Made by a program: the position numbers and the translations under genes
Assembly (NCBI GenBank): GCA_964370855.1
Contig: CAYJMF010000001.1
Span: forward strand, 5,905 to 69,904
Reading direction: 5' to 3'
DNA length: 64,000 bases
DNA from: an uncultured Planctomycetota bacterium
GTDB taxonomy: Bacteria; Planctomycetota; JAJSAM01; JAKLKS01
Shown: positions 3,149 to 53,955 of the stretch, piece after piece
Layout: every line of letters starts with the position of its first letter
How positions within the stretch are numbered: position 1 is the stretch's first letter
Notes under the pieces: model-generated
What the model was told of the DNA's origin: nothing
Databases searched by the model: none
The model's input: only the letters and a program-made list of their open reading frames with translations

Positions 3149-4394
3149 TCAGCTCGCCGGGGCGGTCTCCACGGTCCCGGCCCCGGCCCGCCGGCCCCGC
3201 CGGCGGCGCGGAACGCCCGCCGCGGGAAGCAGGGAGGGGAGACCCTCGACGGCGCCCTTCACGTCGAAGAGGGCGAGGTCGGTGTAGGCCTTCATCGTCA
3301 GCTCCATGGAGGAGTGGCGGGCGAGGGCCTGCACGACGCGGGGATGGAGGCCGAGCGCCGCGAGCGAGGTGATGAAGGTCCCGCGGAGGGCGTGGAAGTC
3401 CACGGAGCGCCCCCCCTCGTCCACCCTCGCGATGCCCGCCGCCTCGAGGTCGCTGTGGAAGGTGCGGATCTGCGGGAAGCGGGCCGACGGGAAAACGGGA
3501 TCCTGCGGCTCTCCCTTCACCGACTTCCAGCGGTACTCCTTGAGCCACCCCGCGAGTTCCTTCCGGAGAGGGACGGACTGGTCCCTCTTCGACTTGGCCA
3601 CCGCCGCCGGAATCAAGACGGTCCCCTTCTCCAGGTCGAGATCCTTCCAGGAGAGGGCCAGCATCTCCCCCTTGCGGAGCCCCGTCCCCGCGGCGAAGGC
3701 GTAGATGAGCGCGCGGGTCTCGCCGAGGAGAAGCAGCCGCGCCTCCTCGGGAGGGGTGACGCCCCTGTGCTTCCTCTCCGCCCGGGCCTGCTCCAGCGGG
3801 CGGCGGCGAGCGGCATCGAGGAGCCGGCGTAGCTCCCCGTCGGTGAGGGCGCGCCGCACGAGGCGGCGATCGGTCTCCTCGTTGAGGGAGCGGATGTTGA
3901 TGAAGGGGTCGTAGGCGAGACGGCGGTTCCGGACGAGCCATCGGCTGAACTGGAGGAGGGCAGCGCGCATGCGGTTCACGGTCCGCGCACTCAGGCCCCG
4001 GTCGGAGCGGCCCTTGAGCCACGCGGAGGCGCGGGGGCCGTCGAGCTCCTGGAGGCCGGTGAGCCCGTTCTCCTCGACGAAGAGCTGGAGGGTCCGCTCG
4101 CGATCCTCCAGGTGGACGGGGGAGAGGCGGCGGGAGGCCAGTTCGGTGAGGAAGTCCTGGACATGGTCGCCGAGGTGGCGTTCGAGCTGGTCGTCGAAGG
4201 GAGTGACGAGGCCGGCGGCCCGGTGCTCTTCCTTCTTCGAGAGGGCGAGGGCCTTGGAGTAGGCGGCCTGCCGGTCCCGGGTTTCGAGGGAACGGCGGAT
4301 CCGCTTCCCGTCCACGGTGAGGTCCACCCAGTAGACCCGGGCCTCCCGGAGCTTCCCCTTCCCCGTGCGGAATCGCGGCTTGTACACGCGCATG
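3149..4394 (-). CDS. int: tyrosine integrase (phage integrase family), transcribed toward the tRNA
   Basis: Start MRVYKPRFRTGKGKLREARVYWVDLTVDGKRIRRSL is the AP2-like N-terminal domain typical of P4/CP4-57-type integrases. The catalytic region has GTGLRKGEMLALSWKDL (Arg), HALRGTF (H-x-x-R) and MKAYTDL (Tyr). The track ORF extends to 4717 as an upstream extension; ATG at 4394 chosen. Confidence 0.85.
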
Positions 4395-4715
4395 GCGGCC
4401 TCCCGACCCGGGGCGCGCCCTGCCGGCGCCCCCGCTCCGAGGAGCCTAACGTGGAGGGGGCCCATCGACTGCTTCTTGGTTGCCGGGGCGGTCCGGGAGT
4501 CCTCCACCGGGGCGGGGCAGGTGCGGGGCCCCCGGGGTAGAGTCCCGGGGTCACCACCGGGAGGTCCCTTGGCTGGTCCCAGATCCGTCGAACCGGGCTT
4601 CGGGCGCCGGATGCCGCGTCTCCCGGCGGTGGAGACGCTCGCCCGGATCCCCCCGCTGGCCATCCTGGTGTTCCGGGCCACGGCGCCGGTGGCGGTGCCC
4701 CGGAAGGCGACCACC

Positions 4716-5375
4716 ATGATGCCGGAGAAGGAGTGGGAGGCGAATCGGAGGATCGAGGCGGCACGGCCGGGGGCCCACGCGGCGTCGATTCGGGCTCTGG
4801 CGCGTTGGTTCCGGCACCGGGAGATCCCCGTCTACCAGGTGACGGCCCGGGCGGCCATGGTCGAGGGGGTGCTCCGGGGGCCCTGGAGGGATACCGACCC
4901 GGGGCTCGTGGGGCGACTGCTCGAGTACCCGGCGAAGCCGCGGGCGTGGGTCGAACTGCTCCCCTACCTCGAACTGTTGCGGCTCCTTCGGGTCGAAGGA
5001 CATCCGAAGGCAGTACTGGCCGCGGCCCGCGAGGCGGTCGTCGGCGCCGAGAAGTCAGGGGATCCCTTGGGGATGCTGCACGGCGTGCGGGAGGTTGCGG
5101 CGATGCTGCAGGAAGATATCGCGATCCTGCACTGGGCGTCGGTCGATGAAGCCCGCGCCGCGGCGGCTCCTTCCGCGAAGGGTGGCACCGACGGGGGGGA
5201 CCCCAAGGACCCTCTGCGAACGATTCCAGAAGCGGCGAAGAGGCTGACGCTGGGGGTCCGAACGGTATGGAGGGCCATCAGCGTCGGACAGTACCGGGTC
5301 GTCCGCCTCTCGAAGAGGGTGGTCCGCATGAAGGAGTCGGAGATCCAGAGGATTCTCCGCAATAGAGAACCGTAG
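4716..5375 (+). CDS. DNA-binding protein with C-terminal HTH_17 (excisionase/MerR-like) domain
   Basis: C-terminus IPEAAKRLTLGVRTVWRAISVGQYRVVRLSKRVVRMKESEIQRIL is an HTH_17-type helix-turn-helix. Divergent from the integrase. Start uncertain (ATG 4716 or 4611; track ORF from 4365). Confidence 0.5.
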   Translation: MMPEKEWEANRRIEAARPGAHAASIRALARWFRHREIPVYQVTARAAMVEGVLRGPWRDTDPGLVGRLLEYPAKPRAWVELLPYLELLRLLRVEGHPKAVLAAAREAVVGAEKSGDPLGMLHGVREVAAMLQEDIAILHWASVDEARAAAAPSAKGGTDGGDPKDPLRTIPEAAKRLTLGVRTVWRAISVGQYRVVRLSKRVVRMKESEIQRILRNREP

Positions 5376-6054: not shown

Positions 6055-6354
6055 CTATTCACACACCAGCGTGACAAACAGCACTGCGAACGAGAACCCC
6101 GCCACCGTCGCCACAACCACCCGAAGCGGCCGCGCAACAATAGAGAGGCGGGCTAGCACGATGCAGGCCACCATACACACGAGAGTAGCGGTCCACACAA
6201 TGCCGGCCACCATGGGCACACCCATGCGATATTCGGTGCTCTGGTTCATGAACGCCGCAAACCACGTTAGGACGCTTGCCCCTGCCGCAACAACAGCCAT
6301 CACCACCGCTCCAAGATTTGCCGCCAGCACCAGTACTCTCTTACCTCGCGGCAT
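6055..6354 (-). CDS. small membrane protein (about 3 TM helices); candidate immunity protein
   Basis: 99 aa, strongly hydrophobic (LVLAANLGAVVMAVVAAGASVLTWFAAF ... VAGIVWTATLVCMVACIVLARL ... VVVATVAGFSFAVLFVTLV). Its start overlaps the stop of the upstream lipase-domain giant protein by 14 nt. A gene immediately downstream of a toxin domain is the classic immunity position. Confidence 0.6.
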   Translation of the reverse strand: MPRGKRVLVLAANLGAVVMAVVAAGASVLTWFAAFMNQSTEYRMGVPMVAGIVWTATLVCMVACIVLARLSIVARPLRVVVATVAGFSFAVLFVTLVCE

Positions 6355-9300
6355 TGCGGAATGCCTCGCCCAGATCCGTTCCTACGCCACCGTCCGTGCC
6401 AACCCATCCAGAGTCTTCGTGCTTTGCATCATAGGTCTTTCCACCGCCCAAATCCCGCGTACTCGGAGCCAGGATCACACTATCAGCTCTAAACACAAGC
6501 TGCCCCAACTTGCTGTACTTTGACATGTATCCGACAAATGCATTCTGAATATTTCCCGGCAAACCGTAGGGCCTCGAATCAATGTTACTCGAGAAGGCCG
6601 GGGGGAACGACACATGAGTATGACCGCGCATTTGCGCCATGTCAGAGTGGTCCATCAAGCCGCTATCCACCGGATCAATAAGCCCGATAAATCGCACCTT
6701 GAGGCCGGCTCCCAAGATCTTGTTGCCCTTGCACCTACAGCCGGCCTTGCTAATGAACCCCGCAATATACATAGCCATGATTGCTCCGCGCGACCACCCC
6801 ATGATATCGATTTTTATTCTATCCTTATCACACCCCGCCTCCAAGTAGGCGCATACCTTCGAGCAGTACCATGCCATAGCCTTGTGCCACACGGCCATGA
6901 ATTCATTCGTATCCTTCAGCAGCCCCTTCCCCAGGGTGTCTGGAACGGTTGCGCTAACTTCAAAGGTATCGTAAAATGTCTCGCCGGTTGCTCCCTTGCC
7001 CTCGGCCGTCTTCTTGTAGGAGTCGCGCTGTCCCTGAATTGTGGTGTTCGTATATGGAGCATTCCCACGATTCCTGCCCCCCTCAAAGAAGAAGCCGAGC
7101 CACAGGTCCTTCTTGCAGGGGTCCTTTACCCCCTCCTTAGAGTCTCTGGTGGCACTTCGAACACCCTCAGTCGTCGCTTGGTCGGGAGGCTGCTTCGGCT
7201 TCTCCGGGACCTTCGGCTCCTCGGAGACAGGCGCTTCCTCCACCTTCTTCTGCGGTGGAACAGGCTTATCGTCCTGCGCCGGTACGGGAGGGCCCTGCTG
7301 CGCGACAGCCGTAACGGAATCTGCTGCACCAGGGAGCCCGATACCAGCAACGGAATCTCCCGTGAGTTTTCTCTGACCATCCATTAGAGGTGTGTCACCG
7401 CCGGATGGAGGAGGTCCCATGGATCCGGGTTGGCCGATATCAGGCGGCGATTCCCCCGCCCCCCCCTTTCCCTTCTCGGCCGGATCACTCGGCTCCCATT
7501 GGCAGGTGGCATTGTTGCACACAGTAGTTGGGGGACAGGGTGGGTCCATATCCTTGCACTTTGGTGGAGGTCCACAATTCGGCCACGTCCCGAGCGGTAC
7601 CACAGCGTCGTCCTGGGGGGCCTTCTTCTTTCTCTCTTCCTCCTTTCGCTTCTTCCACTCCTCCTCGGTCTCGTCGGCTCTCTTCTTCTTGTCTTCTCCC
7701 TCTTGTTCCTCCTCGTCCGCCTTTCTGTCATAGTCGTCCGCGGCCTTATCGGCCCTTGCTGCCTTTTCTTGGTAGAATGCCACAGCAGCCCAGCGACCCT
7801 CCTTCGCCGCTTGGTCCGCCTTCTTCCTGTAGTAGTCGCCCTGCTTCCTTGCCTCGCCAGCCCTTTTCCGGTTCTTCTCAGCCTCAGCGCGGTGTGCCAT
7901 TGCCTCGCGGAACATTGGATCCCGCTTTGCCCGTTCCTCGTCCGCCTTCTTCTGAAGCCTATCAAGTTCCTTCTTGTTGGCAAGTGCCTTCAACTCCAGT
8001 TCCTTCTTTTTCGCTGTATTGGCCTGTTCCTTTGCCTTATTCGACTTCTCCGTCTCCTCCTTGGCCTTCTTCGAATAGTAATCCTGCGCTGCCTTCGTAC
8101 TGGCTTTCTCAGCTTTCGCCGCGAACTCCTTAGCGCGAGCCTCATGCTTGTCCGCGGCGCGGTTGAATTTTTGAGCAGTATCACCGTGCTTCACTCCCTC
8201 CCTGAATAGGGGATCCTCCGCGGCCCTCTCTAAATCTGCGCGTCGCTGGCGCTTGGCTGCCGCCAAGGCCTCGGCAGCCTGTGTGGCACCTTCCGCCCCT
8301 CCTGCGCCTCCCTCCTTCTCAGTGATTTCCTTATATTCCTTCTCATAGTCATCAATCCTCTTCTGGGCACGTTCCGCAGCCAGAGTATCTCCACGCTTTT
8401 CAGCGTCCGCCTTCTCTTGCTTCGCGCGTTCGACGGCCAGCCTAGCCTGTCTCTCTCTGTCGGATTCAGCCAGGAGGTCCGCCGCCTCCTGCTGTAGTCG
8501 ATCAGCTCGCTCCTTTGCTCGTCTGTAGGCTTCCGCATCTCCGCGCTTCGCGGCTCTCTCCGCATCACGGGCCGCACGATCCGCCACGATAGCAGCTTCT
8601 TTGGCCCGGTCTGACGCAGCCCGCGCCCGGGCAACGACGGCGGGGTCGGCATCGTTCTCAGCATCGCGGAGCCGACTTTCCCGCTCGGCAGCGGCACTCC
8701 GAAGGCCCTGTGCTTGGTAGCGAACCTCACGAGCCTTGCGCAGCCCCTCAGGATCTCTGTACTGTTCGTCGTGTTCTCGCTCGCGCTCCCTCTGCTGCGC
8801 CCTTCGTTGAGCCGCCTGCTCTATGAGCCGCAGGATGTCTGAGGAAGGGGCTGTCGACTGCTGCGATGCCTCGAACCCTGACTTCAAGGCGTCGAGGGTC
8901 CAATAATCCAAGTCTGCCTTTGCCTGTGCGTACTCTTCCTTGGCCCTCTCCAGCTTCGTGGCCAGCTCCACTTCCTTCTTCAATGCACCCTTGAACACCG
9001 CGCCGTAGAAGGCCACGCTCTGTTCAATGCGAGCCAACCACGCAGTGTCTTCTGATTGCTCGTCCTCTCGTTTGACCTCACCCAGGATCACTCTCTTGCG
9101 AATTGAGTCTTCTTCTTCCTGAATTGCGCGGTTGTATTGCTCAGTCAAATCCTTGACCACTTCCTCAGCCTTGACCATCCGCTCGAACGCTTCATCCGCA
9201 TTGTTCTCGGCTTCCCCAGCACGCTGTACTGCGCCGACTCCTCCACCACCAGGCCCTCTTGAAGCGACCCCGGCGATTCCTGCAAGGAGATTGGCTCCAT

Positions 9301-11002
9301 GGCTGGATAGACTCGCTCCGATGCCCGGGGAGAACGGGCTAGGCGTCAAGACCCCACCTGAGACCTGAAGTTGTTTCGGAAGCAGAGAGAGCGAGTTCCC
9401 AAGCGGTTCGATGTTCAATTCACCTCTGCCAGCTGCCAACCACGATGGCCGGCTTGGCATTCCAGGCTCCGAGCCCATCAGGCCCATTTTCGTTCCCGCC
9501 GGTTCGCCACCGAACGACACTTGGATGACTTCCCCTCCTGTGACGCGCTGCAGGACTCCCCCTCCTTCATCGGGCCTAGCATAAATCAAATCGTTGACTT
9601 GGCGGACTCCGTCGACATCCTCATCACCAACGACGCCGAAGTCATGCACGCCAGCGTCCTCTTGCCAGTCCACACTCCACGGCTCGCTGTGAGGTGAATG
9701 GAATTCGGTTAACCACTTTGCGCCCCTGTGTCCATCATCCAGGCTTGGTCCGGGTGTTGCGAGGACACCTCCGCCTGGACCAAGGTCAGAGCCTCCGAGG
9801 TCAAAGTCTCCTGAAGTCGGAGGAGCCAGAACCGGAGGAAACCAGGGTCTCTCGAACCTGCTCGGGTCCACTGCGGCTATTACCGAGTCCTGTGGAGAAA
9901 GATAGGGTTCTGCTCTGAACTCCCGGAGTGGGCTGGAGTGAACCGGTGTAATCGTCGAGAGGATTGGTACTGAGGGAGGCTGCGTACTCGAATCGGCTAC
10001 CCCAGCTCCCGTGGTTCCTCCCGGCGGCCTATGGCCCTCTTCCTCTCTCCTTCGGGGCGGAGGCTCATCCGGAAGCGAAGGCAGCGGTCCACCGGACATC
10101 TGCCCTGCAGGAGACGCAAGGGGCTGGCCGCCGGCCACTTCAGAATCTGGCTCCTCATCCGTACGACGCCCGGCGACTGTTACGCCTCCGGAACCAGTAC
10201 CCTTCATCCTCTCTGGTTCCTGGGCCTCCTTTGGCGCTGCCTTTGATGCCAGAGGCGCATGGGAATCACCGGGGAGTTCCACTTCCTTCCCAACCACGGA
10301 GTGTCCCCCAGCCACTCTCAGCCCTGCCACCGACTCCTGCGGTCGCCCTCCGCCCATTGATTGGCCGGAGATACCTTCACCTGCAGGGTCCGCTCCTCCG
10401 GGTCCAGGTGCCATTCGAAAGCCCTGCTCACCGTAGCCCCTCGTAAGTTGCCCAGAGAACATTGAACCTGGGAAAGCACAGGCACCCGTAGGATGGCCCG
10501 AGCATGTACCAGGAGAATTCGGAACTGTGAAGGTGAGCGCCCACAGGGGCGCCACCTCCGGAGGAGGCGACGCGCCCTCGGCAACCTGTCCTTTAGGAGG
10601 AGTGCCCAGGTCAGGAGTGACACGGTCCATCCCTGCCGGCTCTTGGGGGGGGGTGAAAGGCGCATGCGTAGGCAGGCAGTCGCACTTCGCCACACACTTC
10701 TGTCCGCCCCCTTTCCCCACGACATCCTGCTTCGGTACGTCGAATTGCGCGTCCTTGATAGGGAGCGGGGCGCCCTTGGGCGATAAGGCCCCGGCTCCAT
10801 CGCCACCCCCGGCTTGGGAATCTGCCGGAGCCTCGCTCTGGTTCCCCTTGGCGCTTGGTGGGCTAGCCTGCTGCGGTTTCTGGTCCTTCCTGGTGTCCGG
10901 AGGCGTGACTACAGGCTCAGGGCTCCCCTCGCGGGGGGGGGATTCGCATCCCTCGCACCCGCAGTCACCCGAACTTCCTCCGGCACCGGTATTGCAGGCC
11001 AT
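6341..11002 (-). CDS. giant (1553 aa) protein: Gly/Pro/Ser-rich N-terminus, ~600-aa Ala/Lys/Glu/Arg coiled-coil stalk, Cys-rich linker, C-terminal DUF2235 (Tle1-like alpha/beta-hydrolase, predicted lipase/phospholipase) domain
   Basis: AGAGGAG SD upstream of the ATG at 11002. C-terminal region has LWLGFFFEGGRNRGN, the nucleophile elbow IDIMGWSRGAIMAMYIAGFI (GxSRGA) and VRFIGLIDPVDS, which match the DUF2235 triad of signature motifs (FDGTxN / GFSRGA / FLGVWDTV). The central region is a heptad-like Ala/Lys/Glu/Arg repeat (AKEEYAQAKADLDY..., DRAKEAAIVADRAARDAERAAKRGDAEAYRRAKERADRLQ...). The lipase-domain DNA (about 6341-7400) is visibly lower GC (~52-55%) than the flanks. Confidence 0.8.
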   Translation of the reverse strand: MACNTGAGGSSGDCGCEGCESPPREGSPEPVVTPPDTRKDQKPQQASPPSAKGNQSEAPADSQAGGGDGAGALSPKGAPLPIKDAQFDVPKQDVVGKGGGQKCVAKCDCLPTHAPFTPPQEPAGMDRVTPDLGTPPKGQVAEGASPPPEVAPLWALTFTVPNSPGTCSGHPTGACAFPGSMFSGQLTRGYGEQGFRMAPGPGGADPAGEGISGQSMGGGRPQESVAGLRVAGGHSVVGKEVELPGDSHAPLASKAAPKEAQEPERMKGTGSGGVTVAGRRTDEEPDSEVAGGQPLASPAGQMSGGPLPSLPDEPPPRRREEEGHRPPGGTTGAGVADSSTQPPSVPILSTITPVHSSPLREFRAEPYLSPQDSVIAAVDPSRFERPWFPPVLAPPTSGDFDLGGSDLGPGGGVLATPGPSLDDGHRGAKWLTEFHSPHSEPWSVDWQEDAGVHDFGVVGDEDVDGVRQVNDLIYARPDEGGGVLQRVTGGEVIQVSFGGEPAGTKMGLMGSEPGMPSRPSWLAAGRGELNIEPLGNSLSLLPKQLQVSGGVLTPSPFSPGIGASLSSHGANLLAGIAGVASRGPGGGGVGAVQRAGEAENNADEAFERMVKAEEVVKDLTEQYNRAIQEEEDSIRKRVILGEVKREDEQSEDTAWLARIEQSVAFYGAVFKGALKKEVELATKLERAKEEYAQAKADLDYWTLDALKSGFEASQQSTAPSSDILRLIEQAAQRRAQQREREREHDEQYRDPEGLRKAREVRYQAQGLRSAAAERESRLRDAENDADPAVVARARAASDRAKEAAIVADRAARDAERAAKRGDAEAYRRAKERADRLQQEAADLLAESDRERQARLAVERAKQEKADAEKRGDTLAAERAQKRIDDYEKEYKEITEKEGGAGGAEGATQAAEALAAAKRQRRADLERAAEDPLFREGVKHGDTAQKFNRAADKHEARAKEFAAKAEKASTKAAQDYYSKKAKEETEKSNKAKEQANTAKKKELELKALANKKELDRLQKKADEERAKRDPMFREAMAHRAEAEKNRKRAGEARKQGDYYRKKADQAAKEGRWAAVAFYQEKAARADKAADDYDRKADEEEQEGEDKKKRADETEEEWKKRKEEERKKKAPQDDAVVPLGTWPNCGPPPKCKDMDPPCPPTTVCNNATCQWEPSDPAEKGKGGAGESPPDIGQPGSMGPPPSGGDTPLMDGQRKLTGDSVAGIGLPGAADSVTAVAQQGPPVPAQDDKPVPPQKKVEEAPVSEEPKVPEKPKQPPDQATTEGVRSATRDSKEGVKDPCKKDLWLGFFFEGGRNRGNAPYTNTTIQGQRDSYKKTAEGKGATGETFYDTFEVSATVPDTLGKGLLKDTNEFMAVWHKAMAWYCSKVCAYLEAGCDKDRIKIDIMGWSRGAIMAMYIAGFISKAGCRCKGNKILGAGLKVRFIGLIDPVDSGLMDHSDMAQMRGHTHVSFPPAFSSNIDSRPYGLPGNIQNAFVGYMSKYSKLGQLVFRADSVILAPSTRDLGGGKTYDAKHEDSGWVGTDGGVGTDLGEAFRNAAR

Positions 11003-11014
11003 CGCTCCTCTATG

Positions 11015-11374
11015 CTAGCTCAGCCGCTGCTCGAGGAACCCCACCGCCCACCCGGTCAGGACGGGATCAGACCCCGCGATCGTGATCTTGAGCCGGAACC
11101 AGCGCCTCGTCAGGGTCGCGGACATCTGGACCTCGGTGCTGGCCCCGACCGCGGTGGGACCGCCTCCCGTGCAGGTCGACCAGCTGTTCTGATCCGTCGA
11201 CTCCTGCGCGGTCACGCTCCAGGTCGCTCCCGCCGGGACGTCGGGTCCGCGCCAGAGGCTCAGGAGGGCAGTCTGGTACTCCGTCACGTCCATGGCGATC
11301 GTGTAGAAGTCCGTCGCCCCTGCGAACGTGGTGAACCGCGGCACCATCACGACCGGCACGAGCTCGCCCGCCAT
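11015..11374 (-). CDS. small beta-rich protein, paralog family member 1 (PRFT...WRGP...GGG...WFRLKITI...WAVGFLEQRL)
   Basis: 119 aa from ATG 11374 with AGGAGG SD. Shares conserved blocks with the ORFs at 11480, 12363, 12762, 13444 and 13740. Its stop is 13 nt upstream of the giant gene's start. Confidence 0.7.
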   Translation of the reverse strand: MAGELVPVVMVPRFTTFAGATDFYTIAMDVTEYQTALLSLWRGPDVPAGATWSVTAQESTDQNSWSTCTGGGPTAVGASTEVQMSATLTRRWFRLKITIAGSDPVLTGWAVGFLEQRLS

Positions 11375-11479
11375 CTCTTCCTCCTGGGCTCTTGGCCCTG
11401 TCCTGCATCTCACCAGAAACCGTCGTTACCAGGGCCGGCCTCGTTCAGCGCATGCCACGAGCCGTTACCCTACCATCTC

Positions 11480-11848
11480 CTAGACCAGTCGCTGCTCCAA
11501 GTACCCCGTTGCCCACACCGTCACCGCGGCATCCGAGCTTGTGCCCAACGGCAGGTCGATCTTCATCCGCAGCCACCGGCGCCTGAGGTTCTGAGCGATG
11601 ATAGTTGTCAGGTCCTCCCCCGGATCAACCGGGGACCCGAGATCCTGCCATGTTTCCGCATCGTGCGAGTGCTGAAGGACCACGCTGAAAGTCCCTCCAC
11701 CCTGTACGGGACCGCGCCACACTGTCAGGACACAACGGGAGTATCTGTCGACCTGGAGCGCTACCGTCACGAAAGAACTGTTCCCGAAGTACGATGTAAA
11801 GCGCGGAGCCATGACGAGTGGGACCTGAACACCCTTGGGCTGTGCCAC
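11480..11848 (-). CDS. small beta-rich protein, paralog family member 2
   Basis: 122 aa; GTG start with GGGAGG SD. Motifs LVMAPRFTSYFG, VWRGPVQGGGTFSV, RRWLRMKIDL, VWATGYLEQRLV align to paralog 1. Confidence 0.7.
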   Translation of the reverse strand: MAQPKGVQVPLVMAPRFTSYFGNSSFVTVALQVDRYSRCVLTVWRGPVQGGGTFSVVLQHSHDAETWQDLGSPVDPGEDLTTIIAQNLRRRWLRMKIDLPLGTSSDAAVTVWATGYLEQRLV

Positions 11849-11937
11849 TTCAACCTCCCGTTTGGTCTGCCGACCGGTCGCGGCTCTTCACTTCCGTTGG
11901 AACCCGGCGTCGCACGTCAAGCACTCTAGACATCGTC

Positions 11938-12300
11938 CTAGGTGAACTCGATAACAACGACCTGAACGGGAGCGACAAGACCTACGCCGTCGATTTCCCC
12001 CTCGTAGGTTACTCCCGCGGGGAAGGTGAACAGCCCTCCCGGAGGCACGAGGAGGTCCGTAACCAGGACGGGGCCGACACCCAGTCGGATATTCAGGGGA
12101 TTCACGGGGTCCAAGTTCTGGATCAAGACCTGGAACCTCCCTTGAAGCGGCGCAGCAATCGCCATGCTCGCTCCGACGAGGTAGTAGTTCGTCGTTACCC
12201 CGGAGATGGCACCGCGCACGGTGAGCTCGCCCTTCGTACCAACGAGCATCCCCGTCCCGAGTCCTTTCAGGCCGTCTTGGATCATATTGAATTCCGGCAT
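11938..12300 (-). CDS. small Gly-rich beta protein, not a member of the paralog family
   Basis: 120 aa; ATG with GGGAGG SD. Gly/Val-rich (GLKGLGTGMLVGTKGELTVRG...FTFPAGVTYEGEIDGVGLVAPVQVVVIEF). Embedded within the paralog array and co-oriented with it. Confidence 0.65.
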   Translation of the reverse strand: MPEFNMIQDGLKGLGTGMLVGTKGELTVRGAISGVTTNYYLVGASMAIAAPLQGRFQVLIQNLDPVNPLNIRLGVGPVLVTDLLVPPGGLFTFPAGVTYEGEIDGVGLVAPVQVVVIEFT

Positions 12301-12362
12301 CTCGCCTCCCTATGACCGCTTCTTCGTCGGAACTTCCAGCTCCGAACTCCCGTGGCCTGGTT

Positions 12363-12731
12363 CTAAGCCCCAGACCTCTTGTCGAAGTCGCCCACGGCCC
12401 AGCATGTGTACCCGGGATCAGGAGCCCCCCCGGTGATCGTGATCTTCAAGCGCAGCCACTCCGTCTCGAGCGCCGCGAACGCCTGTGCCACCTCCTGCTC
12501 ATCAGCAGGCGTGAAGGGAGTCCCTTCCGAGGTCCAAATCACCAGATCGGGAGATTTCTCGACCTGGACGGAAAACGTCGGAGTACCACCACCGATGGTC
12601 ATCCCCTTCCACACACTCATGTTTGCAGAGGAGTACTGCCGCACGTTCACGGGAGCAGTGGCGTACTCCATCGCTCCGGATAGGCTCGTGAACCTGGGCA
12701 GAAGCACGATCTTGTCCACATCGGCAGCCAT
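12363..12731 (-). CDS. small beta-rich protein, paralog family member 3
   Basis: 122 aa; AAGGAGG SD. IVLLPRFTSLSG, VWKGMTIGGGTPTFSV, EWLRLKITITGG, YTCWAVGDF. Confidence 0.7.
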   Translation of the reverse strand: MAADVDKIVLLPRFTSLSGAMEYATAPVNVRQYSSANMSVWKGMTIGGGTPTFSVQVEKSPDLVIWTSEGTPFTPADEQEVAQAFAALETEWLRLKITITGGAPDPGYTCWAVGDFDKRSGA

Positions 12732-12761
12732 CGTAAGACCTCCTTCATACTGACCTGTGCC

Positions 12762-13133
12762 CTACCGCAGAAGGCCCTCGGCCCAGCACGTTACGCGAGT
12801 GTTCGAACCGTAAATGACGATTCGCAATCTGAACCACCGAAGCCGGAACCCATAGCTGAAGAACCTGCCGTCCGTACCGGGGTCAATCCCGTATGCTGAC
12901 GTGCCCGCTCCCGTAATCCAGTCCTGGCCGTTTAGCGATTCCTCGATGTACATCGTGAATGTCGGAGTAGCCCCACCTCCGAGAGGCCCGCGTCGGAATT
13001 CGAATTCGGCCGACGCGTATTCTGAGATATCCAGTGGCTGGGTCGTGAAGACGAACGAACCGGGCGTCGTTCCCTTGCCGACAAGCGTCGTGAACCTCGG
13101 GAGCAGCGTCAGAGCCGACTTCGCATACCCCAT
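12762..13133 (-). CDS. small beta-rich protein, paralog family member 4
   Basis: ATG 13133 (MGYAKS...) with AGGAGGAG SD; the track ORF extends to 13169. LTLLPRFTTLVG, FRRGPLGGGATPTFTM, RWFRLRIVIYG, VTCWAEGLL. Confidence 0.7.
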   Translation of the reverse strand: MGYAKSALTLLPRFTTLVGKGTTPGSFVFTTQPLDISEYASAEFEFRRGPLGGGATPTFTMYIEESLNGQDWITGAGTSAYGIDPGTDGRFFSYGFRLRWFRLRIVIYGSNTRVTCWAEGLLR

Positions 13134-13443
13134 TCGCCTGCTCCTCCTATGGGCGACAAGTGTGAGCATTGACGCAAACGGTTGACGGATTCAAGACGAA
13201 GTCATTGCTGCCTTGCCTTTCGCGGCGACTCGAGTCCTCGCTGTCCAGACCGATGGTCTCCGCATATTCGGGCCTCCGCCTGGAATGGCCTTGGGCGTCG
13301 CCGAGCTGGGGCATGTCCAGAGGAGGCGCGGGGAACTCGGACCAGGACCGCCTTGCGGGAGCAGATGCGCGCGACAAGTCTCTGGTTCTGCCATCGACAG
13401 CTTGTGCCGGCATGGGTGTTATCCCTACGGGTCTCGAAGGCAC

Positions 13444-13743
13444 CTACCTGTCCCCTTCTCTGAACCAGCGCACTCTCATGCGCGCATCTCCGCCGAATTG
13501 CCGCAGCCGCAACCGTCCCCAAGAAGTCCCCTGCGGTCGGCAGGGAACCGATTGCCGCTGGCCAGGGGACACGACTCCGGAGAGTATCCCGGTCCAGAAC
13601 GACTTGTCCTCGCTACCCTCCAGGACGAAATCGACTGCCCCGGTGTACTGTGGGACGGATTCGACCGCTTCGATGTAGACGACGCCTCCCGCCCTGCAGT
13701 CGAACGGCTCGGTGACGAACTCGTTCGCTTGTTCCACGTTCAC
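13444..13743 (-). CDS. divergent paralog family member 5 (lacks the N-terminal PRFT block)
   Basis: 99 aa; GTG start with GGGGAGGA SD. Its start overlaps the upstream gene's stop (GTGA). VDFVLEGSEDKSFWT and WGRLRLRQFGG...RVRWFREG align with the TFSV...W and WLRLKITITGG...CWAVG blocks of members 1-4. Confidence 0.55.
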   Translation of the reverse strand: MNVEQANEFVTEPFDCRAGGVVYIEAVESVPQYTGAVDFVLEGSEDKSFWTGILSGVVSPGQRQSVPCRPQGTSWGRLRLRQFGGDARMRVRWFREGDR

Positions 13744-14150
13744 TCCTCCCCACCATCCTTGGTGCGCTCCCCTGTCCTGCGTCGGCGCACGGAGGACTGC
13801 CTTCGACTGGCCCTCCCCATCACGGACGGACGGTGGGGCCCGGACCGCGCGGACACGCGCTTCTGGCTCATTGTCGGGAGCTCGTCGGAACCTCGTTCGG
13901 TGTCGTCCGTCTGGATGATCCGGATTGTGAGCTTGCGCCCTATGGGGATGGAGATGGCGCGGAAGGCCGAGACATCGATGAACGCCTGTACTTCATTGCT
14001 TCCGACGATCGTCGAGTATCGCGGGTAGAACTCGAGGGGTACGACCTTCGCATGGGAGGGCTCGGGGGAACGCTTGCGGAAGTCACGCCTCCCTCTCGCC
14101 TTGGCGGCACGCCTCTCCTTGTTTGACTCCTGCCGTGGTCGCGCGCTCAT
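13740..14150 (-). CDS. divergent paralog family member 6 with basic N- and C-terminal tails
   Basis: ATG 14150 (MSARPRQ...) with GGGAGG SD 5 nt upstream; the track ORF extends to 14216. VVPLEFYPRYSTIVG resembles the LLPRFTxxxG block. Highly basic termini (RRAAKARGRRDFRKR; RRQSSVRRRRTGERTK). First gene of the operon. Confidence 0.55.
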   Translation of the reverse strand: MSARPRQESNKERRAAKARGRRDFRKRSPEPSHAKVVPLEFYPRYSTIVGSNEVQAFIDVSAFRAISIPIGRKLTIRIIQTDDTERGSDELPTMSQKRVSARSGPHRPSVMGRASRRQSSVRRRRTGERTKDGGEE

Positions 14151-14291
14151 TCGACCTCCCTTGCGTCCATTGTCGTTCCTGAGTTCCTGTGTAGGCCATG
14201 GCCCCGCTGTCGTCAACTCACCTTTGGAGCGGGGCCTTCACCGTTGGAGCGGACCCCGCTCGAGAGGTTCCACCCGCCCGCATCAATGGCC

Positions 14292-15107
14292 TCACTCGAT
14301 TGGGAAGGGGATGTTTCGCCTAGTGTAGGCTCGATTCAGGGAATAGGCATTCGCGAGGCCAACGGATGCGGCGATCTGACTCTCGCCACGTTGGAGGCGG
14401 ACCCCACTCTGCACCCTTGCGTGAAAGAACTCCCAAGCGACTTCTTCGGGGGGTAGACCTACGGTCGATATGCAGAGACGCTTGAGGACATGGCGATTCA
14501 CTCCGAGTGCTCTGGCCCAGGACTTCACCTGGAAGTCCGACCCCACTTTTAGGGTGAGGAGCGCCTTTCGCATCTTCTCCCTCTTGGAAAGGAGACTGAA
14601 GGGCTTCTCGTCGGAGAGATCCGCGCCTCCGTTCCGGCAGGCCGCCGCAATCCTCTGCGAGATCTCTCCTTCGGGAACGAATTCGATGGGGCATCTGCGC
14701 GCCCAGTCGGCGACCACATGGGCGGGGCAGTCGGGTGCGTCGGCGAAGGAGGTGCAACCGGGCCGTTTCAGGAGTGAAGCGACTACCGAGGGTCTGAGCC
14801 GCATGAGCGCCTCGACCCCGAGGACCACCACATGAGGGCCGGACTGGAACTCCAGCACATGAAGGAGCCTTCGGGCTTCTACCCTGATTGCCGAAAGGTG
14901 GTGACCGTCGAGATTCAAGTCGACGACGCCTGCCAGGATGAGCGGCACGGAAACGGCCGCAACCGATGCCATAGCTTCCAACAATGCAGCCATGGATTCG
15001 CTGGCTGGAGCGACATCGAGGGCATTGGCCTTGCCCCTTCGGGGCTGGAGGCTGGCCGCTGCGGGAGAACCACCTCTTGTGGGGCGATCGCCGCCTTTCA
15101 GTGCCAT
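14292..15107 (-). CDS. AraC/XylS-family transcriptional regulator
   Basis: C-terminal double HTH (VKSWARALGVNRHVLKRL ... IAASVGLANAYSLNRAYTRR) typical of the AraC family. Start ambiguous (15107 or 14993; track ORF to 15218). Confidence 0.6.
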   Translation of the reverse strand: MALKGGDRPTRGGSPAAASLQPRRGKANALDVAPASESMAALLEAMASVAAVSVPLILAGVVDLNLDGHHLSAIRVEARRLLHVLEFQSGPHVVVLGVEALMRLRPSVVASLLKRPGCTSFADAPDCPAHVVADWARRCPIEFVPEGEISQRIAAACRNGGADLSDEKPFSLLSKREKMRKALLTLKVGSDFQVKSWARALGVNRHVLKRLCISTVGLPPEEVAWEFFHARVQSGVRLQRGESQIAASVGLANAYSLNRAYTRRNIPFPIE

Positions 15108-15597
15108 CCCATCCTCGGACTTCATGCACTTGTTCCCTGTCTGCGAGGAACTCCCCGGACCGGCATCCTCGAACTCTCCATCAGTTCCTCTCTCCCCGGC
15201 GCCGGTGGAACCCGGCACTTTCGATTCGTCCTTTTGTCCGCAGTTGCCTCCGCGGCGGCGCGCCCAATGCGCCCCACTGGAGATAGAACGCCCGAGACCC
15301 GCAAATCTGTCGCGGGATCCCGAGAATCTTCCGCAAACCTCCTATCCTCCGGGCCGGCCCCGCCCACCCCCGGGGCCCTACACCCCCCCAGAGGCATTGA
15401 ACCCGCCCCGGAATCGAAAAGGGCCGCTGACCACAGACCGTCCCCCTGCCGGGATGCACTGCCCCCCCGACGAGGGGGACCGCTGCCTGTGTCAGCGGCC
15501 CTTCGAGAGGGACCTTAACGAGAGGCCGGTCCGGAAGTCAAGCGCCTGTTTCGATGCCGGGAGTGCCCCCAGCGTGCGCTGGTCGCCCCGGGCCGGA

Positions 15598-26420: not shown

Positions 26421-28670
26421 TCATGACACACTCTCGGCAAGGAGCCTGCCCATCGCCCTTCGAGCCCCTTTGGGATCGAGGTGACCGGAAGCGTAAGTAG
26501 CCGCGAGCAGGTCCGCGGGGAGGAGAGAGTCGTACTTCTCGCGAAGCCTGTTCTTGACGCCCTCGGCCATCACGATTCCTGACGGAGGGTCCGATGCCTC
26601 CAATGGCTCGAGGATCTCGCGCATTTCCCGGGGGGACTTTCCCATGACCTGGAGCGCGATGCCATCGTGGCTGACCTCGAGCCCCCTGCCCTCAAGGAGG
26701 ATCCGGATGGTGTGCATCGCGAGATCGCCCATCCACGGGAAGAGGAGTGTGTCGGAGCCGCTTGACACGATGCGGGACTTGTCGAGTCCCAGAGCCGCGA
26801 AGTTGCCTCGGGCCTCGATGAGGAGACGCCGTGCCGTCGTGTCGAGGTAGGGCGGGACCTCCGAAGAACCGTAGACCCTCACCATCTCCTCCCGCACCCG
26901 ATCATGAACGAGGGCACGGCCCCCGCCGAAGAGCGGCGCCCTCCCTCCGGGGGCGGGCACCAGGTCGATGACCAGGCTCTCCGCGTCCACCGAGACGACC
27001 TTCCAGCGCCGCCCCGCGAAGATGAGGAAGGCCCCGACCGTGAGGGGGTAGTCGATCGGGAGCGACCCGAGCGTCCTCCCCCCGTGAACGAGTCGGTACT
27101 CGTCGGGCGTCATGAAGACCGCGTAGAACGAGTAGTGTCCGACGATGCGCTCCCCGGTCAACCCCAGGGTGAGGGAACCGTCAGATGTCTGGACGAGGAC
27201 GTCATGCTCGCCAAGGGCACGAAGCAGCTCGGCGAAAGCCCCCTGGTTGACTCCCTTGAACGGGCCTGACACGCAGAGGGCCCGCCATGCCTCCAGGGCC
27301 TGGACGCCTCCATACTGGGAGATGAGCGACAGGAGCTGCTGGACCAGGGTGGAGAGGTGCAGGGCGCCCACCCGCGGCGGCTCGTTCCACCGAGCCAGCA
27401 GCAGCTGGACCATGGCGATGGTCTGGACGAGCTCGGCGCGCAGGCGGTCCTGGGGCGGCGTGCGGGGCGTGATCTCCCGCTCCCGCACGTAGCCCCGCAG
27501 GATCCCCGGCTCTCCTCGGCGCCCGGAGCGCCCGAGACGCTGCCGGAGGCTCGCCACCGAGGGCGGGGTGCCAACCTGGGCGATGCTCGTCACGCGACCA
27601 ATGTCGATGCCGAGCTCCAGGGTGCTCGTGCAGACTGCGGTCGCCGGACGGCCCCCTTCCTTGAGGATGCGCTCCACGTCCTCGCGGAGCTCCTTCGAGA
27701 GGTTCCCGTGATGGGGGTAGAACTCGTTCGGGACGCGCTCCCGCTCGCACAGTCGCGCCAGGAGATCGGCGTACCGCTCGACGCGGTTCCGGCTGTTGGC
27801 GAAGACGAGATTGCTCGTCCCGCGGAGAGTCTTGAAGAGGTGTTCGACGATGGCGATCTCGTCGCCCGTGGGCTCCTCGGACTCCGATGGCTCCTCTCCC
27901 ACCACCTTGGGCATCGGATCTGCGGCGACGTAGCCACGGACCTGGAGCTTGAGCTCCTGGGCCTCTCCGGCGGCCTCGATGACCCGAACCGCTTCTCCCC
28001 GGCCCGGCCGGAGGAACTCCGACGCCATGGCCATGTCGCCCAAAGTGGCGCTGAGCCCGATCCTGGGGACCCGACGGCGGAGGACGAGTTCAACCCTGTG
28101 GAGCAAGGACTGGAGCTGTCGGCCGCGCTCGGACCCGATGAAGGAGTGCAGCTCGTCGATGACCACGTGCCCGAGCCCCGAGAAGACCTTCCCCACCTTG
28201 AGGCCGTGGATGACGAAGAGGGCCTCCAACGACTCGGGGGTGATGAGGAGGATCCCCGAGGGCTCCGCGAGGAGCTTCTTCTTGCGACCACCGTCCACGT
28301 CTCCGTGCCAGCGGTGCACCGGGATCTCGAGGTTCTCGCACAGCCGATCGAGCCGCTCGAACTGATCGTTGATGAGAGCCTTGAGCGGGCTCACGTAGAG
28401 GACCCGGACGCTTCCCTCGGACTTCCCGACGAGCATGGAGACGATGGGCAGGAAGGCGGCCTCGGTCTTCCCGCTCGCCGTCTGCGCCGCGAGGATGACG
28501 TCCTCGCTCCCCCCGAGGATGGGATCGACGGCCGCCTCCTGGACGTCGCGCAGATCCGTCCAGCGCTGCTCCCAGATCCAGCGGCGGACCTTCTCGTGGA
28601 GCTTCCCGAAGGCCGCGGAGGGGGAACTCGCCGCCCCGGGGCTAGAGCCGGAAGGAGGAGAGGTCATCAT
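26421..28670 (-). CDS. sngC: DEAD/DEAH-box (SF2) helicase; third gene of a TerB/ATPase/helicase (Shango-like) operon
   Basis: Start MMTSPP at 28670 (the track ORF extends to 28976). Motifs AQTASGKTEAAFLPIV (motif I), VIDELHSF (DExH), LSATLGD (motif III), helicase C-terminal domain (ICTSTLELGIDIG...QRLGRSGRRG), plus a long C-terminal extension. Overlaps the preceding gene by 29 nt. Confidence 0.8.
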   Translation of the reverse strand: MMTSPPSGSSPGAASSPSAAFGKLHEKVRRWIWEQRWTDLRDVQEAAVDPILGGSEDVILAAQTASGKTEAAFLPIVSMLVGKSEGSVRVLYVSPLKALINDQFERLDRLCENLEIPVHRWHGDVDGGRKKKLLAEPSGILLITPESLEALFVIHGLKVGKVFSGLGHVVIDELHSFIGSERGRQLQSLLHRVELVLRRRVPRIGLSATLGDMAMASEFLRPGRGEAVRVIEAAGEAQELKLQVRGYVAADPMPKVVGEEPSESEEPTGDEIAIVEHLFKTLRGTSNLVFANSRNRVERYADLLARLCERERVPNEFYPHHGNLSKELREDVERILKEGGRPATAVCTSTLELGIDIGRVTSIAQVGTPPSVASLRQRLGRSGRRGEPGILRGYVREREITPRTPPQDRLRAELVQTIAMVQLLLARWNEPPRVGALHLSTLVQQLLSLISQYGGVQALEAWRALCVSGPFKGVNQGAFAELLRALGEHDVLVQTSDGSLTLGLTGERIVGHYSFYAVFMTPDEYRLVHGGRTLGSLPIDYPLTVGAFLIFAGRRWKVVSVDAESLVIDLVPAPGGRAPLFGGGRALVHDRVREEMVRVYGSSEVPPYLDTTARRLLIEARGNFAALGLDKSRIVSSGSDTLLFPWMGDLAMHTIRILLEGRGLEVSHDGIALQVMGKSPREMREILEPLEASDPPSGIVMAEGVKNRLREKYDSLLPADLLAATYASGHLDPKGARRAMGRLLAESVS

Positions 28671-33605: not shown

Positions 33606-33671
33606 CGGCACCCCACCGTTCAGCGCCCGTCTGCTCCGATTCTCTCCTTCAGCAGCCGGAGGAACTCCCTT

Positions 33672-33733
33672 CATTGCAGCACCCACCATCATCGACGTGA
33701 TGGTTGCTCACGGGAAGGACAATCGTGATTCCC
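33672..33733 (-). promoter_or_regulatory. conserved ~62-bp cis-element, copy 2 (upstream of the TerB gene)
   Basis: cattgcagcacccaccatcatcgacgtgatggttgctcacgggaaggacaatcgtgattccc; see copy 1. Confidence 0.5.
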
Positions 33734-38588: not shown

Positions 38589-38803
38589 TCCGGAGGCTGC
38601 ACCTCTCCAGCGGTTCATCCGAGGACACCAGTCAGGAGATGGGACTGCCGGCCATGGCGAAAACCTCGCGGCCCCCTCTCGTGACGGCTCGGAGGTTGGC
38701 CCGATGGGAGCCCGACTCGGAGATGGGGCCGTCTAGAGGTATGCTCTTTGGAGTAGACGGTCCGTCGTATCGATGCCCCTGTTCGTATACGACTGAGGAA
38801 CTG

Positions 38804-39793: not shown

Positions 39794-39811
39794 TGCCCAG
39801 GAGGGGAGCGC

Positions 39812-53945: not shown

Positions 53946-53955
53946 GAGGTGTTCG

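Follow-up and report, generated by a model that had tools for sequence, protein, structure and literature searches.

A run of seven small open reading frames, all on the minus strand, raises the question of what a set of paralogous beta-rich proteins does when its signature belongs to no familiar family. The earlier note on this DNA described six paralogues and an unrelated Gly-rich member, and proposed diversified specificity components, among them immunity-like modules, or hetero-oligomeric structural subunits. The analysis described here covers the window (the whole stretch of 64,000 nucleotides) together with other loci that carry the family, all of them metagenome assemblies and, where the source is named, all Planctomycetota metagenome-assembled genomes. 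On balance, and with modest confidence, the array would form the accessory part of a polymorphic toxin cassette that is complete in itself and lies on a tRNA-Gly/integrase island, and the small proteins may serve as a hetero-oligomeric carrier.

Table 1. Positions of the cassette features and their flanks within the window, in order of coordinate
Feature	Position	Strand	Remarks
99-aa protein, candidate immunity	6055..6354	-	3-4 hydrophobic segments; 14-nt overlap with the end of the giant gene
Giant 1553-aa polymorphic-toxin-like protein	6341..11002	-	no whole-protein Pfam match; architecture common to other giants
C-terminal putative toxin module, alpha/beta-hydrolase/lipase-like, residues 1290-1553	6344..7135	-	GWSRG at 6785-6799
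Third Cys cluster, residues 1143-1167	7502..7576	-	borders helical region and variable end
Charged Ala/Glu/Lys/Arg-rich region, residues ~601-1140	7583..9202	-	composition classes per 50 aa
Second Cys cluster CVAKCDC, residues 103-109	10676..10696	-	CxCxCxC-type motif
N-terminal Cys cap MACNTGAGGSSGDCGCEGC, residues 3-19	10946..10996	-	recurs in other giants
M1, type A jelly-roll subunit	11015..11374	-	adjoins giant gene
M2, type B jelly-roll subunit	11480..11848	-	orthologues in L003, L010, L014, L015, L008
G, Gly-rich ORF, fifth component, C-terminal cupin/jelly-roll domain	11938..12300	-	conserved elsewhere
M3, type C jelly-roll subunit	12363..12731	-	orthologues equally placed in L003, L010, L011, L015, L008
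M4, type D jelly-roll subunit	12762..13133	-	heads conserved order; clusters with D orthologues
Intergenic gap M5-M4	13134..13443		flat 98-aa ORF
M5	13444..13743	-	divergent small protein, PRFT strand missing; start overlaps M6 stop by 4 nt
M6	13740..14150	-	basic N-terminal tail, family-like N-terminal strands (VPLEFYPRYSTIVG), basic C-terminal tail
308-aa ORF, possible HTH regulator of the cassette	14292..15218	-	weak Pfam HTH_18 match, E 0.029

Members of the array

The coordinates of the seven ORFs match those first reported, and each ORF is preceded by a GGAGG-like ribosome-binding site at a spacing of 5-10 nt. M1-M4 are 31-43% identical to each other over their full length, and the motifs PRFT, W(R/K)G, W.R(L/M)(K/R)I and W(A).G are invariant among them. 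Pairwise phmmer comparison gave E values of 2e-27 (M1/M2), 3e-21 (M1/M3), 2e-15 (M1/M4) and 4e-12 (M2/M4). Judged by these alignments, M1-M4 are significant paralogues whose similarity is far above chance, in agreement with the earlier claim that they align end to end and share a signature.

The remaining two members are less clear. The similarity of M5 is confined to the central and C-terminal motifs of the family (E 1.4e-3 with the family HMM against ~70 proteins; hhalign P 3e-4, 39% probability, columns 51-104), and a two-sequence M5 profile scored worse, at 4% probability. M5 has a Shine-Dalgarno (SD) sequence, a GC3 of 0.76 and, in L034, an orthologue (48% identical, E 2e-27) that neighbours A and D genes; it is probably a degenerate jelly-roll relative. 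M6 matches family HMM positions 4-42, that is the N-terminal PRYST strands and nothing further, and hhalign likewise aligned columns 6-40 only (P 1.5e-4, 51% probability). It has an SD sequence (AAGGGAGG) ahead of the ATG at 14150 and a GC3 of 0.75, its reading frame stays open to 14216, and no orthologue was seen among the other loci; it appears to be a partial or divergent member of the family. Because the similarity of M5 and M6 is limited, the six paralogues first proposed become four certain, one probable on marginal similarity (M5) and one partial, with N-terminal strands only (M6).

The gap between M4 and M5 had been suspected of holding an internal promoter or a decayed copy. The decayed copy gained no support, no family signal being found in any of the three minus-strand frames. 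Its 98-aa ORF is flat in GC1, GC2 and GC3, with no codon-position bias, and the gap yielded no promoter in a sigma-70-type consensus scan, no terminator consensus and no Rfam match. On the other side of M6, the 308-aa ORF has a homologue in L019 (phmmer E 4e-10), where it precedes the D gene; none was found in the remaining loci.

Conserved types and gene order

Each of M1-M4 clusters with orthologues from other loci, not with its neighbours in the array; M4, for example, groups with D orthologues from L003, L009, L010, L011, L014 and L015. By this clustering they are ancient paralogue types, A, B, C and D, and not the outcome of recent expansion. Type A is the most conserved and the most numerous. 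Many D orthologues carry a GGGGG and low-complexity tail that brings them to 180-210 aa, a tail that the window's copy does not have.

In 11 loci the genes run D-C-G-B-(A')-A and then on to a gene for a giant protein: the window, L003, L008, L011, L014 and L015, and the metagenome loci L017, L019, L022, L026 and L027. In L010 G is shifted to the front, and the reduced arrays of L001, L009 and L013 always retain A. Small genes number from 2 to 6 per locus. The giant gene was present in 12 of the 12 loci examined first and in most metagenome loci with sufficient sequence, and the A gene adjoins it in all loci with enough sequence except L034, where D follows A.

The Gly-rich ORF is, as first stated, unrelated by sequence, no similarity to the other array proteins having been found (hhalign E 0.6), but it is not the odd one out: its recurrence in the arrays makes it a fifth conserved component. 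The existence of ancient paralogues, each with its own orthologues and in a fixed order, fits hetero-oligomeric subunits better than a recent expansion of specificities, and of the roles first suggested the former is preferred.

Fold and family

M1 is predicted to form an 8-stranded jelly roll (AlphaFold pLDDT 96.2), in line with the beta-sandwich that had been expected, and the modelled fold fits an assembling subunit. Among the fold matches of the small proteins are cement proteins of phages, jelly rolls of capsids and XepA of PBSX. For G the likeness is to cupins and to penton or spike proteins of viruses. Structural neighbours are frequent among small uncharacterised proteins of tailed phages (BFVD matches with TM ~0.7 and E as low as 1e-6), a likeness at the level of structure only.

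The view that the signature belongs to no known family has held. Searches of Pfam, NCBIfam and PADLOC gave no match, and those in PHROGs were all below threshold, the best being a partial match of M3 to phrog_9522, "major tail protein" (E 4.5e-5), with phrog_5707 at E 0.008-0.02. Nor is the family an annotated phage connector or tail family, a possibility that the earlier note had raised against itself: tblastn against 50,697 phage genomes gave nothing at E<=1 for M1 and only noise (E 6-10) for M3, and no relative was found among 2.9 million viral contigs of IMG/VR. With XepA and YomS, of the Bacillus prophages PBSX and SPbeta (PDB 6i56, 6i5o), the identity is 5-10%, and there is no sequence-level match. 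They are single genes of phage lysis cassettes, whereas the array is a fixed paralogue set beside a giant toxin-like gene; the assembly associated with XepA and YomS is a pentameric disc.

The giant protein and its variable end

The giant gene, the context that explains the array, falls outside the coordinates of the earlier note. An SD sequence, AGAGGAG, precedes its ATG at 11002, 13 nt past the M1 stop. Giants downstream of the A gene are 1000-2300 aa long across loci and have no alignable sequence in common beyond a shared architecture: an N-terminal Cys cap, a CxCxCxC motif, a disordered stretch, a charged helical region, a third Cys cluster and a variable C-terminus. Cys caps take the form MSCGCVQCG in L002, MACAPCTS..C..C in L003, MACGDECRCSGAC in L015, MAGCNGSCKCDGAC in L014 and L023, MGCGCNG.. 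in L013 and MGCSRGGGCCASCGG in L017; we know of no described toxin system with such caps. The giants of L002, L003, L006, L011, L013, L014, L015, L017, L019, L022 and L027 have a CxCxCxC-type motif at a distance of 100-260 residues from the N-terminus. The charged region, which by its composition is probably helical, has comparable blocks in other giants, and the third Cys cluster stands at the equivalent boundary in all six giants compared (the window, L002, L003, L009, L010 and L011) and also in L013 and L015.

The C-terminus of the window's giant weakly matches Pfam T6SS_Tle1-like_cat (PF09994/DUF2235; E 0.0044, 16.8 bits where the gathering cut-off is 27), the match being centred on GWSRG, a GxSxG motif at residue 1402. 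An exhaustive search with the last 264 aa found 27 relatives, in which the domain is C-terminal in proteins of 183-1287 aa; two of them, P0155 and P0160, score 26.0 and 25.6 bits against the same cut-off, and 6 of the 10 relatives scanned are proteins with RHS repeats. Elsewhere the C-termini differ: besides the lipase-like domain of the window there are PD-(D/E)xK-like, HExxH (with a weak DUF6782 match, E 1.4e-4), AHH and CdiA-tRNase-like domains, and the neighbour of the AHH protein is weakly Imm11-like, all toxin and immunity assignments being below curated cut-offs. The pairing of Tox-AHH with Imm11 is given in PMC3482391. The giants of L009 and L010 have only their last ~120 aa in common (E 8e-11), and their downstream genes are likewise mutually homologous (E 2e-9). 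Small proteins with multiple transmembrane segments occupy in L003 and L011 the position that the 99-aa protein has in the window. In these comparisons the giant behaves as a polymorphic toxin, with an interchangeable putative toxin domain at the C-terminus of a conserved N-terminal part, and the downstream gene co-varies with that C-terminus and is immunity-like. The suggestion that the array proteins themselves are immunity-like modules finds no support; the gene of that kind is the one that follows the giant.

In polymorphic toxin systems such as Rhs, CdiA and LXG a conserved N-terminal part is likewise followed by an interchangeable C-terminal toxin domain and then by a cognate immunity gene (Zhang et al. 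2012, PMC3482391). Of the trafficking domains and secretion signals looked for (Sec, T5SS, T6SS, T7SS, PVC, MuF and similar) the giant carries none: RHS, filamentous haemagglutinin, PAAR, LXG and MuF domains or repeats and a signal peptide are all absent from it. Neither a signal peptide nor an N-terminal hydrophobic segment is present in the window's small proteins or in nine giants scanned. Across the loci examined no secretion genes are conserved near the cassette, nor is any ATPase, channel or lysis gene conserved beside it, which, together with the missing export signals, counts against the carrier reading.

Genomic context

The window is an island rich in conflict systems, with tRNA-Gly and an integrase alongside. 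Its genes include DUF4041-T5orf172, a DEAD helicase with TerB_N/TerB_C, subtilase-AAA-subtilase, NERD, a DUF4011 helicase with an MTES_1575 nuclease, and Hypoth_Ymh. The L009 cassette lies among housekeeping genes, and that of L001 has terminase genes 6-10 kb away. The make-up of the cassette is the same in island and housekeeping surroundings.

Alternative explanations

The small proteins could instead form a lectin-like receptor-binding ring in the style of AB5 B subunits, in which discoidin-like jelly rolls bind a target glycan and present the giant as an A-type toxin, with no role in export; we consider this unlikely. It draws on the sole recurring sequence-level signal, that of F5/8 type C (discoidin) domains, which are also beta jelly rolls and align with the family at the S.D...W and R(W/Y)(F/V)R(L) motifs. 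The signal appears in 13 of 101 family members (best E 1.4e-4; M2, E 0.002), four of the 101 match a NedA-like galactose-binding domain, and a putative chitobiase has a discoidin-like domain to which the family profile is weakly similar (E 0.23). The B oligomer of pertussis toxin, a hetero-pentamer of paralogous subunits encoded in a single operon, would by analogy offer a precedent. Yet every discoidin score is below the Pfam cut-off (PF00754, at best 18.7 bits against a gathering cut-off of 28.2), discoidin modules are domains of enzymes whereas the array members stand alone, signal peptides are absent, and the best fold matches are non-lectins. The binary toxin PirA/PirB differs as well, PirA being a single subunit in place of a set of five, and the giant has no PirB-/Cry-like domain.

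Somewhat more doubtful is a surface fibre or pilus like the endospore appendages (Ena) of Bacillus, with the Cys-rich giant as a disulfide-linked anchor or tip fibril and its C-terminus as an adhesin or enzyme. Ena subunits are jelly rolls of ~115 aa that lack signal peptides, have their paralogous genes in tandem and are cross-linked through cysteines; a flexible N-terminal connector of ~15 residues carries a Cys-Cys motif that bonds to core Cys residues (10.1101/2020.08.21.260141). Type A retains two core cysteines, C67 (invariant) and C107 (nearly invariant), and the giants have three Cys clusters. However, at E<=0.1 DUF3992 (Ena1A/B/C) gave no match to the proteins of the window or to the 101 members of the family; in place of a connector with a Cys-Cys motif, residues 4-17 of the M1 model are the first beta strand and contain no Cys; and the TCW cysteine is missing from M1 and M2. 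Ena hosts are spore-forming Bacillota, whereas the array belongs to Planctomycetota and is toxin-linked. Moreover, C-termini held in common with RHS toxins, together with co-varying downstream genes, are typical of toxin and immunity genes, not of adhesins.

An intracellular anti-phage (abortive infection) system, in which the jelly rolls recognise or imitate structural proteins of phages and the giant is an effector with exchangeable killing domains, is improbable. The island is packed with defence-type genes, no component has an export signal, and tailed phages often encode the structurally similar small proteins described above, but PADLOC-DB 2.0 matched none of the 10 cassette proteins and some loci, such as L009, lie in housekeeping surroundings. 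A downstream gene that co-varies with a killing domain, and a domain common to RHS proteins, indicate inter-bacterial toxins instead. Finally, a prophage structural remnant (decoration or cement protein, tail-fibre accessory or penton-like protein, with the giant as a virion-borne ejected or tape-measure-like protein) is very improbable, since the weak PHROG matches, the phage-like folds, the terminase genes near the L001 cassette and the integrase and tRNA gene beside the window's island are outweighed by the lack of relatives in the phage genomes and viral contigs searched, by the absence of conserved capsid, portal, terminase or tail genes beside the cassette in other loci, and by a cassette that is unchanged from one context to another.

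A proposed carrier for a polymorphic toxin

The preferred reading remains a carrier for the giant. D, C, G, B and A would assemble into one hetero-oligomeric complex, a ring or short stack, with A as the principal subunit and a single copy each of the adaptors D, C, G and B, and M5 and M6 may be lineage-specific degenerate extra copies. GC3 does not consistently single out A as the most expressed gene, and the range of 2 to 6 small genes is a poor fit to a rigid five-membered complex. The complex may bind the conserved N-terminal part of the giant, acting as a carrier through stabilisation and either export or target-cell binding, after which the C-terminal domain would kill and the downstream protein would protect the producer. 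Small partner proteins encoded just upstream of a toxin are familiar from the LXG toxins of type VII secretion systems and from the Eag and adaptor chaperones of type VI systems. An accessory set of five beta jelly-roll proteins in fixed order was not found in the literature searched, and the jelly-roll genes would be an accessory component not previously described for a polymorphic toxin cassette.

Seven small genes and their paralogy

Seven open reading frames, all on the minus strand, occupy positions 11015-14216. A GGAGG-like ribosome-binding site precedes each start by 5-10 nt, and GC3 (0.72-0.92) is well above GC2 in each, so that all seven look like translated genes.

Features of the window, with the array proteins M1-M6, the Gly-rich ORF (G) and the large gene beside them (giant)
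Feature	Position	Strand	Remarks
Tyrosine-recombinase (integrase) gene	685-2811	+
tRNA-Gly(ccc)	2882-2956	+
Tyrosine-recombinase (integrase) gene	3149-4717	-
Candidate immunity gene	6055-6354	-	99 aa; 3-4 hydrophobic segments; 14-nt overlap with giant
Giant	6341-11002	-	1553 aa; own SD; ATG 13 nt after M1 stop
M1	11015-11374	-
M2	11480-11848	-
G	11938-12300	-
M3	12363-12731	-
M4	12762-13133	-
Gap M5/M4	13134-13443		310 nt
M5	13444-13743	-
M6	13740-14150	-	reading frame open up to 14216
308-aa ORF	14292-15218		weak HTH_18 match
DUF4041+T5orf172	19704-22217		defence/mobile
IS1595 transposase	22991-24025		defence/mobile
DEAD/DEAH helicase	26421-28976	-
TerB_N/TerB/TerB_C protein	30009-33692	-	1227 aa
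Subtilase, AAA ATPase, subtilase	34002-42331	+	1528 aa with CARDB/DUF11; 384 aa; 839 aa
NERD nuclease	42509-43144		defence/mobile
DUF4011/AAA_11/AAA_12 helicase with MTES_1575 nuclease	46041-51749		defence/mobile; 1902 aa
Hypoth_Ymh	53836-54750		defence/mobile

M1-M4 align from end to end at 31-43% identity, with pairwise phmmer E-values from 2e-27 (M1/M2) to 4e-12 (M2/M4). The motif signature described in the earlier note is borne out by columns invariant among these four proteins (PRFT, W(R/K)G, W.R(L/M)K and W(A).G). Its count of six paralogues is confirmed for M1-M4, whereas M5 is a plausible member and M6 a partial one, through its N-terminal strands alone. A family HMM of 100 homologues, run on a database of about 70 proteins, detected M6 at E 2.8e-4 and M5 at E 1.4e-3. 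By hhalign, M6 was matched over columns 6-40 (P 1.5e-4) and M5 over columns 51-104 alone (P 3e-4); a two-sequence M5 profile scored more poorly than the earlier M5 comparison. A true orthologue of M5 (E 2e-27) adjoins A- and D-type genes in L034, one of the loci compared with the window, and M5 is therefore a conserved but rare additional component rather than debris. L034 is the sole source of an M5 orthologue, and its gene order (M5-like, then A, then D, at 104-1428) differs from the usual arrangement. No M6 orthologue was found in other loci. A frame-shifted full-length copy was ruled out for M6, the other two frames being without the C-terminal family motifs.

The decayed copy suggested for the gap between M4 and M5 was also ruled out, as no family signal was found there; the codon-position GC of a 98-aa ORF within the gap is flat. 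The Gly-rich G, which has a cupin/jelly-roll fold, had been called unrelated, and there is indeed no profile-profile similarity between it and the A-D family, but arrays elsewhere contain homologues of it (phmmer E 1e-6 to 1e-19). A G profile search returned 15 proteins.

Fixed types in a fixed order

Window copies, 120 database matches and the members of other loci were clustered together. Each of M1-M4 fell into a separate group with orthologues from elsewhere: M1 into type A (90 of 141 clustered sequences), M2 into B, M3 into C and M4 into D (37 members). This grouping speaks against the local paralogue expansion that the earlier note had suggested. Eleven loci share the order D-C-G-B-(A')-A: the window, L003, L008, L011, L014 and L015, and the metagenome loci L017, L019, L022, L026 and L027. 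L010 is an order variant with G at the front, and A is retained in the reduced arrays of L001/L002, L009 and L013. Small-gene copy number does vary, from 2 to 6 between lineages; in light of the fixed types and order across loci, this variation reflects loss and gain of fixed types and not local duplication. By these comparisons the M1-M4 paralogues are ancient and ordered.

Many type D proteins (P0069-P0118 among the database proteins) are 180-210 aa long, with a jelly roll and, after it, GGGGG and a low-complexity tail that varies; the window copy has no tail and ends directly after the fold (…CWAEGLLR). M1 has a GC3 of 0.92, as against 0.72-0.76 in the six small genes beside it and 0.59-0.63 in the giant gene; its cause may be recent replacement through recombination or a special level of expression. 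As a general rule for type A such an excess was ruled out, since other loci show none consistently.

Distribution and fold of the family

A profile search of 5.8 billion proteins brought up 225 relatives. Among the 120 matches listed, most are 115-135 aa long, all are "hypothetical", none has a Pfam domain, and the organism names attached are those of Planctomycetota MAGs and no others. A scan of the GTDB species set yielded three loci, all in Planctomycetota MAGs, the window's own genome not being among them. There is no model for the A-D family in Pfam, NCBIfam or PADLOC, and searches of these and PHROGs with all cassette proteins (small-gene array, giant and the small gene downstream of it) gave nothing at curated thresholds. 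An annotated family of phage connector or tail proteins had been considered at the outset; no annotated model and no phage sequence was significantly matched. In tblastn against 50,697 phage genomes, M1 had no match at E<=1 and M3 nothing better than noise at E 6-10; tblastn against plasmids gave no significant match, and in IMG/VR (2.9 million contigs) no relative was confirmed.

The sole recurring weak signal in the family is F5/8 type C (discoidin), found in 13 of 101 members with a best E of 1.4e-4, all below cut-off, and the best PDB sequence match of the family profile is the discoidin-like domain of a putative chitobiase (E 0.23). This signal would fit small proteins that act as lectin-like B subunits, a reading we consider unlikely. 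At the level of fold, the matches comprise XepA (12.8) and YomS (10.9), both of which assemble into pentameric discs (PMC6834076), PirA (10.6), the pilus subunits Ena2A and Ena1B (10.5 and 10.0), GOLD domains (~10), capsid proteins of small size from viruses (~9.5) and carbohydrate-binding modules (8-9). In addition, Foldseek against viral models matched many uncharacterised tailed-phage proteins of 110-145 aa, with E down to 1e-6. The fold also agrees with an Ena-like fibre, but the window array has neither the defining connector peptide nor the DUF3992 match of Ena subunits; we consider such a fibre slightly less probable than the lectin-like reading.

The giant as a predicted polymorphic toxin

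The giant ORF adjoins the A gene in 12 of the 12 loci first examined, directly downstream of A in 11 and convergent in L009, and most metagenome loci of sufficient sequence length also have a long ORF after their last A gene. Public gene calls shorten the window giant to 1110 aa (record L016; segment 9674-11002) and the L014 giant likewise, and that of L013 is apparently split into calls of 435 and 1625 aa.

BLAST between giants of different loci gave no alignment beyond low-complexity or coiled-coil noise and the C-termini of L009 and L010. Despite this failure the giants have one common architecture: a Cys cap at the N-terminus, a CxCxCxC motif 100-260 residues from it, a long stretch rich in Pro, Gly and Ser, a charged Ala/Glu/Lys/Arg region of 300-550 residues, a third Cys cluster and a variable C-terminal domain. 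The full-length window giant starts with MACNTG..CGCEGC, and the caps recurring in other giants include MSCGCVQCG, MACGDECRCSGAC, MAGCNGSCKCDGAC and MGCSRGGGCCASCGG. Neither a Pfam domain nor a hydrophobic N-terminus was found in the giants.

The giants of L009 and L010 have only their last ~120 residues in common (31% identity, E 8e-11), and the genes just downstream of the two are mutual homologues (E 2e-9). In the window giant the last 264 residues include GWSRG, on which their sole Pfam match, the T6SS Tle1-like lipase catalytic domain, is centred (E 0.0044, below cut-off); a PDB sequence search with this domain gave no match. Searching 1.84 billion representatives exhaustively yielded 27 relatives, proteins of 183-1287 aa that carry the domain at their C-terminus; RHS repeats precede the domain in six of ten relatives scanned, and two of the ten come nearly to the Tle1 cut-off. 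Other C-termini carry an HExxH domain (L013 and L015; DUF6782, E 1.4e-4), a PD-(D/E)xK-like DIDIETK motif (L002), a CdiA-tRNase-like domain (L009, E 0.009) or, in L014, an AHH motif with a weak Imm11-like gene after it. Tox-AHH and Imm11 are a listed pair (PMC3482391). Downstream of the window giant, the 99-aa protein is a candidate immunity protein of a type to be expected where the toxin is a lipase that targets membranes, and similar small TM proteins are encoded downstream of the giants of L003 and L011. Exchangeable C-termini, RHS-borne relatives and co-varying downstream genes are the features by which polymorphic toxin systems are defined, and the giant is best read as a predicted polymorphic toxin. 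The array thus read would be the conserved accessory set of a previously undescribed cassette for such a toxin in Planctomycetota.

Genomic surroundings

Just beyond the region in which a tRNA-Gly gene lies between two recombinase genes, GC falls from ~0.74 to ~0.60 across the cassette. The segment 685-4717 resembles the border of an integrated island; a second att copy (tRNA-Gly 3' end) was not found within the window. Many conflict genes lie beyond the cassette. The adjoining helicase and TerB genes form what we take to be a known conflict-system pairing, and the subtilase-AAA-subtilase trio looks like a three-gene conflict module. The 308-aa ORF 5' of the array may be a cassette-linked regulator: a homologue lies 5' of the D gene in L019 (2-655, E 4e-10), and it is absent in other loci, L001 and L015 having sigma-70-like genes upstream of the cassette instead. 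The L001 cassette has, 3.5 kb downstream, a Toxin-deaminase gene with a SUKH/SMI1_KNR4 immunity gene after it (19851-20360); on its upstream side, at a distance of 5-10 kb, are two terminase genes and a DNA methylase, so that this copy is also in a conflict/mobile region.

The island context would agree with the cassette being an intracellular defence system, but there is no PADLOC match and the toxin/immunity logic speaks against it, making this improbable. A prophage remnant, for which sequence support is lacking, is more improbable still.

A possible toxin carrier

Polymorphic toxins are classed by trafficking, through T5SS, T6SS, T7SS, Rhs/Tc cages or phage-derived particles. The cassette is like these systems in its toxin/immunity logic, which is known already, but differs in having no known trafficking domain. 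Three features are new as judged by Pfam, NCBIfam, PADLOC, PHROGs and the literature searched: the set of jelly-roll proteins, the scaffold with its Cys caps and the lack of a known trafficking part. That literature yielded nothing relevant to this combination.

From the fixed order, the presence of one orthologue per type per locus and the ring- or fibre-forming nature of the closest folds, we infer that the five small proteins (D, C, G, B and A) would assemble into one hetero-oligomeric complex. This complex would bind the conserved N-terminal part of the predicted toxin and carry it, for export or for binding a target. Neither an export signal nor a gene for an ATPase, a channel or lysis was found to be conserved with the cassette. 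We tentatively suggest that the D-C-G-B-A set could be the core of a new, self-contained polymorphic-toxin carrier of Planctomycetota, in which a ring or short fibre of five jelly-roll types would hold a largely disordered giant by its metallothionein-like Cys caps and deliver the giant's exchangeable tip to the outside or the cell surface without known secretion-system domains.

Significance

The cassette has the hallmarks of toxin and immunity without known trafficking parts, and has five jelly-roll proteins and Cys caps in their place, a finding more interesting than local paralogue expansion. Ancient paralogues in fixed order are a good case for the evolution of a hetero-oligomer from a homo-oligomer. 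Because the pieces are small, soluble and confidently predicted, the carrier idea is directly testable. If it is true, more than 200 "hypothetical" proteins would gain a function, and a carrier formed by the small proteins would be a new principle of delivery, in a phylum about whose cell envelope and secretion little is understood.
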